From positions 11,262 through 75,261 of the IMG/VR virus record IMGVR_UViG_3300045044_000056: 64,000 bases of DNA. One strand, 5' to 3'. This DNA is from a virus. The position numbers were made by a program, and so were the translations under genes. Shown here piece after piece: positions 1 through 5,651 of the stretch. The notes under the pieces are model-generated. The model saw only the letters and a program-made list of their open reading frames with translations, did no database searches and was not told the DNA's origin. Every line of letters starts with the position of its first letter. Positions within the stretch are counted from its first letter, which is position 1.

Positions 1-310
1 TCACCTGGTTCTGCGTGAACCCCTGGATGGTGATGTGGTCAAGATTAGTATGGAAGTTGGTCCAGGTATCATGCCCGTCGTTGGCTGCCAGCACCAAGTT
101 GATCGAGCCCGCGCCGTTGTTGACGATGGTGTCATTGGCGGGGCCGGAGTTGATCTGGCCGTTAGTGGTGACGCCAGCCTTGACCAGTACGTTGTGATCA
201 AAGTTGGCGGTTTCGTCTACCAGGTAGTCGCGCCCATTGAGCGCATGCGCCATGATCGTAATGCTGGACTGCGGATGCTTGCCGATGTCGGACCATACTG
301 CCGTTGACAT
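1..310 (-). CDS. RTX/serralysin-type Ca-binding-repeat-like protein, 5' part only (runs off window start)
   Basis: Not in the ORF track; read by hand from ATG at 310 with AAGGGA upstream: MSTAVWSDIGKHPQSS...GPANDTIVNNGAGS...DGHDTWTNFHTNLDHITIQG. The last segment resembles the GxDTIxDFxxGxDxIDL motif. Confidence 0.5.
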   Translation of the reverse strand, partial: MSTAVWSDIGKHPQSSITIMAHALNGRDYLVDETANFDHNVLVKAGVTTNGQINSGPANDTIVNNGAGSINLVLAANDGHDTWTNFHTNLDHITIQGFTQNQV

Positions 311-354
311 GGTAGTCTTCCCTTGTGCCCCAAGGGTTACCCCATCATTGCTGT

Positions 355-795
355 TTAGCCGTGGAAAACGCTGTCGTTCTTGTGCGGCTGCGCCTTGCTG
401 GCCCAATCCTGCACGGCAGGCTGCAGTTTCTTGATCCAGGCATAGGCCTGCGTCAGCGGGATGTTCTGCCGGTCCTTGAGCCACAGCGCCAAGGCCAGTG
501 GACTGGGACCGAGCCCGGTCAGGTCGTGCAGCAGCACCTGCGCGCTGCCGCTCCACACCCCCATGATCAGGCGCTCGATCTGCGTCAGGTTGGTCTGATT
601 GACGAAGCCGTCGGCGTTGAGCAGCGGCAGCCAATGGCAGCGCTTGTCGTCGGTGTGCGACCGGGCATCGCAGTTGATGCATAGAAACTGAATGCTGTTG
701 CGCGCGCTGTTGCAGCTCGCATTGGTGCCCAGCCATAACCGTGGCACGATCTGCTCCGCGCCGATCAGAGATCCGGGAACCGGAACGGCCATCAA
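355..795 (-). CDS. Dual-specificity phosphatase-fold protein with degenerate active site
   Basis: QIVPRLWLG N-terminal motif; VLLHDLTGLGPSPLALALWL aligns to VLVHCxxGxxRS; C-terminal AYAWIKKLQP helix. Confidence 0.65.
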   Translation of the reverse strand: MMAVPVPGSLIGAEQIVPRLWLGTNASCNSARNSIQFLCINCDARSHTDDKRCHWLPLLNADGFVNQTNLTQIERLIMGVWSGSAQVLLHDLTGLGPSPLALALWLKDRQNIPLTQAYAWIKKLQPAVQDWASKAQPHKNDSVFHG

Positions 796-807
796 GTCAC
801 CCTTGTT

Positions 808-1901
808 TTACGAGCCACGATAGTCGAGAGTTCCAAAAACCCGGAGCGAGCCACGCCGGATGAGAGCACCATGCTTAAGGAGCGAGCCATAATCGCTGAG
901 AGCACCAAGCCTTAGGAGCGAGCCAATCCTGCGGAGAGCACCAAGAACGATGAGCGAGCCACTCGGCCTGAGAGCGCCACAAGAACGGAGCGAGCCACAG
1001 CCTGCGAGGGCACCATAAAGTGAGAGCGAGCCATGAGCTGTGAGAGCACCAAAGTACGGGAGCGAGCCAACCCGGGAGAGAGCACCAAGAACTGCGAGCG
1101 AGCCATTGTCTTGGAGAGTACCAAAAGTCAGGAGCGAGCCATAAGCCTGGAGAGCACCATCGGCGAGGAGCGAGCCATCGCGGAATGAGAGCACCATGCA
1201 GAGCGAGCGAGCCCATAAATCGGTGAGAGCACCAAACCCGACGAGCGAGCCAGTCCGCGCGAGAGCACCAATGCGGAAGAGCGAGCCATTGATTTGAGAG
1301 AGCACCATATCCGGTGAGCGAGCCACCGCGCATGAGAGCACCAGAAGCGTGGAGCGAGCCAGCTCGGAGGAGAGCACCAAAAACCGGGAGCGAGCCCAAT
1401 GTAATGAGAGCGCCACAAGTGAGGAGCGAGCCATTGTTTGAGAGAGCACCACGTGAAGAGAGCGAGCCAATCGTGCGGAGAGCACCAAAAAGGACGAGCG
1501 AGCCAATGCCTGAGAGAGCACCATAAGGGGCGAGCGAGCCATTGTGTTGGAGAGCACCAAGCGTGTGGAGCGAGCCATTGATGCAGAGAGCACCACGATC
1601 CCAGAGCGAGCCCTTAGGTCGGAGAGCACCAGAGAGCATGAGCGAGCCATCAGCCGAGAGAGCACCATAAGTGATGAGCGAGCCATACTACTAGAGAGCA
1701 CCAGAACCACGGAGCGAGCCAACTTCGGAGAGAGCACCAGATCAGCTGAGCGAGCCAAGGTGAACGAGAGCACCAAAGAAGCTGAGCGAGCCAATTTGAC
1801 AGAGAGCACCAAACCGTCAGAGCGAGCCAAAAGGCTTGAGAGCACCAGCATTGGAGAGCGAGCCAAAAGCAGCGAGAGCACCAAAACTCAAGAGCGCCCT
1901 G
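808..1901 (+). ncRNA. TIGR-like dual-repeat guide array 1 (29 full 36-nt units plus a degenerate leader unit)
   Basis: GAGCGAGCCA and GAGAGCACCA alternate, separated by 8-nt variable spacers, from 844 to 1891 (29x36+4 nt; three small indels near 1180, 1215 and 1295). Degenerate unit at 808-843; terminal partial repeat at 1892. Confidence 0.88.
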
Positions 1902-1905
1902 AACA

Positions 1906-2688
1906 ATGATCTCCTACTCGCATAACTTCGAAGACGTCATCCTGGCCCGCGCGCTCGGCTCGATCACCCACGGCTTCTACATCGACGTCGGCGCCGCAAC
2001 CCCCATCCACTCCTCAAACACCTACGCCTTCTATGAGCACGGCTGGTGGGGCCTCGTCGTCGACCCGCTGTTCCGCCTGTGGCCGCAGTACCGCGCCGAG
2101 TGGGAACGTACCCGCCCGCGCGACCTCCTCGCCGCCGTCGCCGCCGGTAAAGAAACTGGCCACACCGAGTTCTGGGTCGCCGGCCATATGCAGTGCTCTA
2201 CCGCCTCGCCCGAAACCCTCGCCTACTTCCGCAAGCTCGGCTCCCAGATCCCCGACCACGGAACCATCGTCAACGTCTACAGCCTCACCACCATCCTCGA
2301 CGCCACCGCAACCTCAGTCGCAGCCGCAGGCGGCCCCATCCACCTCCTCACCGTCGATGTCGAAGGCATGGAGCTCGACGTCGTCCAAGGCCTCGATCTC
2401 TCCCGCTACCGCCCCTGGATCATCCTCGCCGAAGTCACCAAGCCCGGCACCATCGAGCTGGCACCCCACGCCGCCCCGCTCTACCAGTACCTCTGCGACA
2501 AGGATTACGTCCGCGTCCTGTTCGACGGCACCAACGAGTTCTACCTCGATATCGAGCACATCGAGCTGGCGAAACACTTCAAGCTCCCACTCAACTGCCA
2601 CGACAACTTCAAGCTCTACCGCGAAGTGCTGCTCGAAAACCGCATCAAAGAACTGGAAGAAATCACCAACCCAGCCTTCGGACGATGA
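1906..2688 (+). CDS. FkbM-family SAM-dependent methyltransferase
   Basis: YSHNFED, FYIDVGA, SNTYAFYEHGWWGLVVDP and LLTVDVEGMELDVVQG motifs. Confidence 0.9.
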   Translation: MISYSHNFEDVILARALGSITHGFYIDVGAATPIHSSNTYAFYEHGWWGLVVDPLFRLWPQYRAEWERTRPRDLLAAVAAGKETGHTEFWVAGHMQCSTASPETLAYFRKLGSQIPDHGTIVNVYSLTTILDATATSVAAAGGPIHLLTVDVEGMELDVVQGLDLSRYRPWIILAEVTKPGTIELAPHAAPLYQYLCDKDYVRVLFDGTNEFYLDIEHIELAKHFKLPLNCHDNFKLYREVLLENRIKELEEITNPAFGR

Positions 2689-2909
2689 ACATGGACCGCG
2701 AAACAATCCAGACGTTGCTTGATCTGCTCAACCCGTTGCATGATGAGCTTGATCGGCAAACATATGATGAGAAGGTGCACGAGAACTTCGATGCTCCCCG
2801 CGACCGTGAGTACGAGGTCACGATCACGGAAGCGCATGAGCGCGATCTAACTCAAGCTGTCCTGATCCTAGAAGATCGTCTGCGACAGGCGAGGGCTACG
2901 AGTTCATAG
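2685..2909 (+). CDS. Hypothetical protein (74 aa)
   Basis: ATGA overlap with the FkbM stop; MNMDRETIQTLLDLL... is the plausible part of track ORF 2193-2909. Confidence 0.6.
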   Translation: MNMDRETIQTLLDLLNPLHDELDRQTYDEKVHENFDAPRDREYEVTITEAHERDLTQAVLILEDRLRQARATSS

Positions 2910-3198
2910 AGGCATAAAGGCCCGTGGACATTGATAGAACAGGAGTGGGCGATCCATGGGTGGGCTCCTTTAATTTTGAGCGAGCCGGTTGACTACTAGA
3001 ATAGCCACGATCAGCGCGACCATAACCGCCGCCTTCCATGCGCTGTCCCACGCCACCCGACGCGGCACACCCTGATAGCCGTAGGCAACGGCGTAGCGTT
3101 GCAGACCGGCAAGCGCGGCGATTGCTGCGATCCAGAACATTCAGGCCCTCTTTTATGCCGCGCGGCTACTTCTCCTTTGGGCTGAGCGTCCCCCCCCT

Positions 3199-5065: not shown

Positions 5066-5368
5066 ATGACCTGGAAGATGCGATTGCCCGAGGAGGAGAT
5101 CGGCGAGATCGTGGGGTGGCACGGTCAGTGGTGTTTACGAGATCGAGGGTTCAAGCCGGAGGGGCAGCCGTGGCGGCGACTGTATTTGCTTGCGCCGGAG
5201 GAGAAGCACTTGCCTAAAGAGAAGCGTAGCAAGCGGCGGAAGCTGGCCTATCATTTTGCGTGGAATGGCGAGCGGCTAAGTCGCAACAGTGATGCTGTGC
5301 AGCTTTTGAAGAATTATCCGGCGGTCCATGCCGCGGTGTTTGAGATGTGTAAGAAGGCATTTAACTGA
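5066..5368 (+). CDS. Hypothetical protein (100 aa)
   Basis: C-terminal part of track ORF 4850-5368 from MTWKMRLPEEE; the stop codon overlaps the first repeat of array 2. Confidence 0.6.
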   Translation: MTWKMRLPEEEIGEIVGWHGQWCLRDRGFKPEGQPWRRLYLLAPEEKHLPKEKRSKRRKLAYHFAWNGERLSRNSDAVQLLKNYPAVHAAVFEMCKKAFN

Positions 5369-5592
5369 GCCAGGAGCGCCGAGAGCACCAGAAGGTCATG
5401 AGCGAGCCACCCCAGTTGAGAGCACCAGGCAATGGGAGCGAGCCACGCCCTACGAGAGCACCAAAGTATATGAGCGAGCCACGCCGGATGAGAGCACCAT
5501 GCTTAAGGAGCGAGCCAGAAACCGGGAGAGCACCAAGCCTTAGGAGCGAGCCACGTCAGTTGAGAGCACCATAAATCGGGAGCGGAGCGAGC
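5363..5592 (+). ncRNA. TIGR-like dual-repeat guide array 2 (about 6 units)
   Basis: Same two repeats: GAGAGCACCA at 5381, 5418, 5454, 5490, 5526, 5562; GAGCGAGCCA at 5400, 5436, 5472, 5508, 5544. Confidence 0.88.
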
Positions 5593-5651
5593 TTAGGCCC
5601 TCTTGCAATTCTCAAGTAATTATTGATAGGCTATTCAAGTAAGCCTTTAAT

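Follow-up and report, generated by a model that had tools for sequence, protein, structure and literature searches.

The region between positions 808 and 1896 of the window, i.e. the whole 64,000-nt stretch of viral DNA analysed here, is probably a working TIGR guide-RNA array that is set apart from its effector gene and serves the TasA protein of this soil phage in trans; on sequence grounds, a probability of about 0.7 can be assigned to this reading. Trans loading is considered the best explanation because the same repeats are found in three arrays of the phage, the repeats of this array are conserved at about 98.5%, related phages with a single tas gene carry arrays 7-59 kb away from it, and the repeats of their distal and tas-adjacent arrays co-vary. 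The window corresponds to bases 11262-75261 of an 85,183-base IMG/VR virus record, which is 92% complete according to CheckV. The system itself is of a known kind, TIGR-Tas, described only in 2025. The dispersed layout was not found described in the TIGR papers examined, where the terms "orphan" and "multiple arrays" are absent and "in trans" occurs once, in Faure et al.

The array (array 1, Table 1) is of the dual-repeat type. Each unit consists, in this order, of the edge repeat GAGCGAGCCA, an 8-nt spacer A, the loop repeat GAGAGCACCA and an 8-nt spacer B. TRF analysis of the window revealed a 36-nt period over 843-1896. A composite pattern, made of the edge repeat, eight unspecified nucleotides and the loop repeat and allowing one mismatch at most, was found 36 times in the window, compared to 0.00 occurrences expected from 100 shuffles; throughout the window its matches are confined to 844-1883 (+), 5400-5571 (+) and 23322-23577 (-). 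The array can be parsed into one degenerate first unit followed by 29 regular ones; 27 of the 30 units are exactly 36 nt long and the three irregular ones, which lie between 1168 and 1316, measure 37, 38 and 37 nt. Period, composite pattern and parse thus agree with what had been proposed previously by a sequence-only reading of this DNA, namely a real array with 29 regular units and about 30 in total; every detail of that observation which was checked proved right. Nine mismatches were counted in about 590 repeat positions (about 1.5%, over 59 repeat copies), while the 60 spacers are all different from one another.

Truncated edge repeats are present at both ends of the array, as is usual for TIGR arrays; according to a published rule of these systems (PMC12045711), the edge repeat that opens an array is 5'-truncated. 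The variant loop repeat of the first unit, GAGAGTTCCA, is found also in array 3. Both the edge and the loop repeats start with G and end in CCA (box C); with respect to the "UG" start of box D, only the G is fixed, the preceding base being variable. The three sense frames of the + strand contain 17, 9 and 13 stops, which indicates that the sense strand is non-coding; the several stops and the three indels noticed by the sequence-only reading correspond to these stops and to the units of 37, 38 and 37 nt. No Rfam family was matched. Array 1 therefore displays the alternating 10-nt edge and 10-nt loop repeats, the units of about 36 nt and the truncated ends that characterize dual-repeat TIGR arrays, and departs from them in lacking a terminator after 1896 and an adjoining tas gene. 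The absence of an adjoining tas is a matter of layout and not of array identity. One irregular junction in the interior of the array (Table 1) resembles the end of an array joined to the start of another; this likeness, which regards the end of array 3 on one side and array starts on the other, suggests that array 1 could derive from the fusion of two arrays, of 11 and 19 units.

Table 1. Position of the TIGR arrays, of their structural elements and of the relevant genes in the window.
Feature	Position	Strand	Description
Divergent neighbour	355-795	-	dual-specificity-phosphatase-like fold; opens a leftward gene block of about 8 kb
Array 1	808-1896	+	tas-distal dual-repeat TIGR array; 30 units of 36 nt
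Array 1, first unit	808-843	+	degenerate; 5'-truncated edge repeat CGAGCCA at 811-817; variant loop repeat GAGAGTTCCA
Array 1, irregular junction	1197-1224	+	4 nt, then GAGC, then GAGCG, joined to AGCCCA
Array 1, terminal edge repeat	1892-1896	+	3'-truncated (GAGCG); ATG of the next gene 10 nt downstream
FkbM-family methyltransferase gene	1906-2688	+	PF05050, E = 2e-15; starts directly after array 1
Array 2	5363-5594	+	6 units; begins with a truncated repeat that overlaps the TGA of the preceding open reading frame
Array 3	23317-23622	-	8 units; first truncated repeat overlaps the TAG of tasA
tasA	23607-24464	-	285 aa; coiled coil and Nop domain; no nuclease domain

The whole 85-kb record contains only three arrays, with 30, 6 and 8 units, respectively. 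The earlier estimate of about 44 units over three loci is thus matched by a count of exactly 44, and the view of array 1 as a much larger guide set is borne out by its 30 guides out of 44. When a threshold of 70% per position was adopted for the repeat consensus, arrays 1 and 2 were found to be identical and array 3 differed only in one loop position, which falls below the threshold (GAGAGnACCA); the claim that the repeats of arrays 1 and 3 are the same holds with this single exception. In its repeats, array 1 is preserved no less well than the array beside tas. Each of the three arrays has a transcription context of its own, and to this extent the earlier reading is supported. One whole unit and one spacer B are common to arrays 1 and 2, and one spacer A is common to arrays 1 and 3; these shared units and half-units confirm a separate earlier proposal of half-spacer shuffling. 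A compositional bias was also observed in spacer B, which is A-rich at positions 1-3 in all three arrays, with A at position 2 in 27/43 cases; the bias is weaker, and in the same direction, in 1,085 units from related phages.

The distance between the end of array 1 (1896) and the stop of tasA (23607) is 21.7 kb, and the genes flanking the array are not Tas-like; this confirms that the only Tas-like gene lies about 22 kb away and that no Nop gene is close to the array. A second tas gene just outside the window had been considered as a possible objection to trans loading; none was found in the whole 85,183-base record by protein search, by Pfam PF02371 and PF01798 or by a Tas profile built on 16 Tas homologues (cut-off E <= 10). 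TasA scores above the Pfam PF02371 cut-off, and phmmer matches it to a solved TasR (9mty, E = 2e-9) and to TasH (E = 5e-8). Its AlphaFold model (pLDDT 87, pTM 0.83) is all-helical except for a short C-terminal hairpin and, in a Foldseek comparison with the PDB, the best 11 matches are all TasH or TasR, followed by IS110-family recombinases. The N-terminus consists only of a helical coiled coil, with no counterpart in the alignment for the HNH part of SpTasH, and neither a RuvC nor an HNH domain is present. Y253 and H260 align with Y289 and H296 of SpTasH, the residues that cut pre-tigRNA in that protein (PMC13421893), and H260 is invariant in the 16 homologues. Thus, the sequence and structural matches, the absence of a nuclease part and the conservation of the Tyr/His pair identify the protein as a TasA, which is probably able to process its own guides. 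The Tas clade includes thousands of members; a Tas profile search of genome contigs identified 17 loci and a single-protein query none. Relatives are found in Alphaproteobacteria, Acidobacteriota, Halomonas and other genomes and, among cultured phages, only in Salicola phage CGphi29.

Array 1 and its effector have several features in common with the dual-repeat TIGR-TasA system of Flavonifractor plautii (FpTIGR; Faure et al. 2025, PMC12045711): units of 36 nt, alternating repeats ending in CCA, a pair of short spacers in each unit, truncated edge repeats at the ends, a nuclease-less Nop-domain effector and a phage location. However, FpTIGR-type arrays are adjacent to tas and usually contain 5-15 units with 9-nt spacers, whereas array 1 is 21.7 kb away, has 30 units with 8-nt spacers, lacks a terminator and is one of three arrays depending on one effector. 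The best structural match to this TasA is the SpTasH system of Salicola phage CGphi29 (PMC13421893; PDB 9W03 and others), which shares the 8 + 8 nt spacers and the Tyr/His pair; differently from the TasA described here, SpTasH has an HNH nuclease, cuts DNA and is encoded beside its array. A further comparison is offered by the TasA and dead-TasR repressors and by the TIGRFinder survey (bioRxiv 10.64898/2026.09.09.750476): the likely activity of the TasA described here, DNA binding directed by a guide and with no nuclease, is of the same type, and the position of arrays around tas is flexible. This survey took up to 10 kb on each side of tas, with a median of 5.4 kb recovered, and arrays at 18-59 kb are beyond its reach. 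Indeed, since most of the guides of a phage can lie tens of kb from tas, surveys of tas neighbourhoods underestimate the number of guides and overlook entire arrays. Orphan CRISPR arrays and phage mini-arrays also represent guide arrays located apart from an effector that serves them in trans, with repeats matching those of the distant effector's own array, although a different family of RNA and protein is involved. We know of no adaptation genes for TIGR.

The transcription, processing and loading of the array 1 guides, as well as the kind of their targets, can be inferred from these features as follows. Array 1 would be transcribed on the + strand, probably as one unit with the FkbM methyltransferase gene, and the Tyr/His pair of TasA would cut the precursor within the edge repeats, generating 36-nt tigRNAs. 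With each pair of 8-nt spacers, a TasA dimer would bind 16 bp of double-stranded DNA, corresponding to spacer A followed by the reverse complement of spacer B; having no nuclease domain, it would block transcription or replication instead of cutting. A guided nuclease-less TasA represses transcription (bioRxiv 10.64898/2026.09.09.750476). The targets of the array 1 guides would probably be other mobile elements.

The array occupies the entire 1.1-kb gap between the divergent leftward block and the methyltransferase gene. The 12 bp previously reported between the array and the divergent gene are found if the latter starts at the TTG at 795, and become 15 nt with the ATG at 792. This gene had no match in Pfam or PHROG, and it is probably not a Cys-phosphatase, because its HCxxGxxR loop reads HDLTGLGPS, with other residues in place of the catalytic Cys and Arg. 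A scan of both strands of 300-3100 revealed no sigma-70-like promoter, and no rho-independent terminator was found after 1896; as no room for a promoter is available outside the array, transcription of both flanking units must begin in array 1 or cross it. Three options can be considered for the array promoter: it may lie in the neighbouring gene, it may lie in the first degenerate units, or initiation may occur within the array. The sequence-only reading had stated that the promoter would have to lie in the neighbouring gene; this stands as one option, and the other two remove its necessity. Most arrays of the clade are preceded by a gene in the same orientation, from which read-through would be possible; array 1 has no such gene. 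On the other side, a gene start directly 3' of the array is also found at the distal array of the related phage G003 and at the array of G010 (see below), suggesting that co-transcription of an array with its downstream gene is a recurrent layout, and the methyltransferase gene is probably co-transcribed with array 1. None of the RNA runs searched was listed as containing the array 1 sequence; standard RNA-seq loses 36-nt RNAs. In one soil metatranscriptome, a 227-nt contig is identical to 2122-2348, in the methyltransferase gene; its strand is not known and it could be due to DNA carry-over.

The same pair of repeats was found in 98 IMG/VR stretches. A check suggested by the sequence-only reading, i.e. 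a search of related contigs for arrays that do not adjoin tas, gave positive results in five complete or near-complete phages with a single tas. In G003 (96 kb, 100% complete), 24 units are found on the strand opposite to tas, at a distance of 18 kb; G005 (116 kb) has a 21-unit array at 50 kb and G006 (104 kb, 100% complete) a 31-unit array at 59 kb. In G007 (65 kb, with terminal repeats) 31 units are found 6.7 kb from tas, again on the other strand, and in G001 (82.5 kb) arrays lie 5-17 kb from tas, in addition to about 65 units flanking it. The repeat variants are specific for each genome and are common to its distal and tas-adjacent arrays: in G005 (L033 4676-5422, L051 1529-2212) units of 37 nt with an 11-nt loop repeat, GAGTnGAACCA, are present in both the adjacent array and the one 50 kb away, and in G006 the same repeat positions are variable in the distal and adjacent arrays. 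This co-variation is what is predicted if the resident Tas uses the distal arrays; the same pattern could also arise from frequent gene conversion among the arrays. Arrays can also exist without a resident effector, as indicated by G010 (57,402 bp, terminal repeats, 100% complete), where a clean 5-unit array with the same repeats (L078 2192-2386, -) is bordered by a terminator-like hairpin on one side and by the ATG of the following gene on the other; protein and profile searches detected no tas in this phage.

At the beginning of most arrays of the clade, the truncated edge repeat is fused to the stop codon of an upstream gene in the same orientation (TAGCCA, TGAGCCA, TAAGCCA); about 40 such loci were found among L007-L099, both after tas and after unrelated genes, suggesting that these arrays ride on the 3' ends of genes. 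Arrays 2 (5363-5372) and 3 (23613-23622) obey this rule, to which array 1 is an exception. Other soil metagenome contigs contain the same flanks and parts of array 1 without differences; in variants, position 853 is joined through a different spacer to 1693 or 1729, thus leaving the last 5-6 units, or other units are present upstream of 1694 or 1855. The content of array 1 therefore turns over among co-occurring strains, since units differ while the ends and the flanks are kept.

These data bear on the alternative explanations. Array 1 could be a silent relic, or a copy parked by duplication or recombination between arrays, neither expressed nor used. The absence of a detected promoter and terminator, the lack of RNA runs listed with array 1 and the divergent orientation of the upstream gene would agree with such a fate; moreover, recombination between arrays is evident from the internal junction and from the units that array 1 has in common with arrays 2 and 3, and the identity of repeats between arrays could stem from recent duplication or gene conversion, without any use. 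Nevertheless, a relic is unlikely, as it is at odds with repeats that are about 98.5% intact over 59 copies next to spacers that all differ, with the recurrence of large distal arrays in at least five related single-tas phages, with the co-variation between repeat variants and the resident tas-adjacent arrays, and with a unit content that differs between soil populations having the same flanks. Quite improbable is also the possibility that array 1 acts as a decoy or sponge for the Tas of competing phages, or at the DNA level as a series of protein-binding sites in a divergent control region: it would explain why the array fills the whole 1.1-kb region between two operons and why the complete phage G010 has an array and no tas, but array 1 is built like the tas-adjacent array, down to the truncated repeats at its ends and the uniqueness of its spacers, and 60 different spacers are not needed in a sponge or in an array of binding sites.

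The position of the methyltransferase ATG, 10 nt after the last repeat, would fit a further model by analogy with box C/D snoRNPs, in which array 1 serves the downstream FkbM enzyme and the TasA-tigRNA complex recruits it for RNA-guided methylation, as in the case of Nop5 and fibrillarin; indeed, Tas proteins are related to Nop5, which recruits a methyltransferase (PMC12045711). However, FkbM enzymes are unrelated to fibrillarin and the pairing is not conserved: a synteny search in IMG/VR revealed no close relative of the FkbM gene and 7 distant matches, none in an array-bearing locus, and neither FkbM nor other methyltransferases are present among the genes flanking the distal arrays of the relatives, which makes this model very unlikely. 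Finally, a 358-aa antisense frame is open from 1884 to 808 (-), spanning the whole of array 1 and ending 12 nt before the start of the next gene, and a repeat protein might be encoded on the minus strand. The product would switch its repeat register midway, from LVLSxxLARSxx to GSLxxxGALxxx, has a GC3 of 0.60 against 0.66-0.92 in the called genes of the phage and has no Pfam match; in addition, the antisense strands of the clade arrays are stop-poor by composition (695 vs 1804 stops in 46.7 kb) and open antisense frames also occur in several further arrays of the clade, so that a protein of this kind is hardly credible.

Returning to trans-loaded guides, their targets were searched using a rule based on the finding that published Tas cuts leave 3' overhangs, and therefore consisting of spacer A and the reverse complement of spacer B separated by a gap of 0-2 nt. 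When the 44 guides were compared with the 85-kb genome of the phage itself, considering either geometry, gaps of 0-2 and at most 2 mismatches, the matches were no more than those of controls. No excess of perfect matches was observed between the phage guides and 0.85-0.92 Mb of loci from related phages, nor between 1,085 foreign guides and the genome of this phage. With up to 2 mismatches, an apparent excess was obtained (70 matches against about 44 with letter-shuffled guides, locus L023 having 6); it was lost when real spacers were re-paired, since the mean became 59 and 5 out of 40 controls reached 70. In a scan of IMG/VR with the guide common to arrays 1 and 2, 21 matches were found, evenly distributed over gaps 0, 1 and 2 as by chance, and no clustering of other guides was seen at these matches. 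Among host genomes, none of three guides of an Alphaproteobacteria MAG had a target; in Halomonas NO4 one of three guides was matched, and this GC-rich match, which has a 1-nt gap and falls in a membrane-protein-like ORF, is probably due to chance.

A candidate target was identified in the cultured Acidobacteriaceae bacterium KBS 96 (G011), which has one TasA, 53% identical to that of the phage, and one array of 6 units with the same edge repeat (L116 10776-10990). For one of the six guides, a perfect ungapped match of 16 nt is present at another site of the 6.7-Mb genome (L127 9963-9978); the other five guides and the reversed control patterns have no perfect match in the genome. The site is located near the 5' end of an 86-aa HTH_17 (AlpA/Xis-like) gene, which lies at 6.33 Mb of its scaffold, beside a tyrosine integrase gene and upstream of genes for small terminase, capsid and prohead protease; judging from these genes, the element is small and of a satellite-like or cryptic-prophage type. 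Matches of two other guides fall in the same element within 925 bp (L127 9053-9068 and 9238-9253), with 2 and 3 mismatches, respectively. The chance of any perfect match for six guides is about 0.02-0.06; in 12/2000 shuffled sets, matches of three distinct guides fell within 1 kb, and the conditional chance of the two additional matches, calculated from the background rate of real guides, is about 0.04. This single case is suggestive and fits a nuclease-less TasA that silences competing mobile elements; if it holds, the match would be the first natural target of a TIGR guide, in a bacterium that can be cultivated.

The fact that KBS 96 guides converge on an AlpA/Xis-like control region, within an integrated element that encodes a capsid, suggests a role in the silencing of mobile elements. 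By extension, it may tentatively be proposed that the arrays of this clade of soil phages are portable guide cassettes, dispersed in the genome and served in trans by one TasA, which tas-less phages with arrays would need to borrow, and that their natural function is the silencing of other mobile elements, such as satellites and prophages in the same cell. The phage described here, with one TasA, three arrays and three transcription contexts, represents a clean natural test of trans loading, and its relatives, including one without tas, allow the trans-loading rule to be checked.

As regards the phage itself, no tRNA genes and no DNA similarity to cultured phages were found. Bases 1-60 of the record recur at 85048-85107, 136 bases from the record end, so that the record, though classed as linear, may be circularly closed or terminally redundant.
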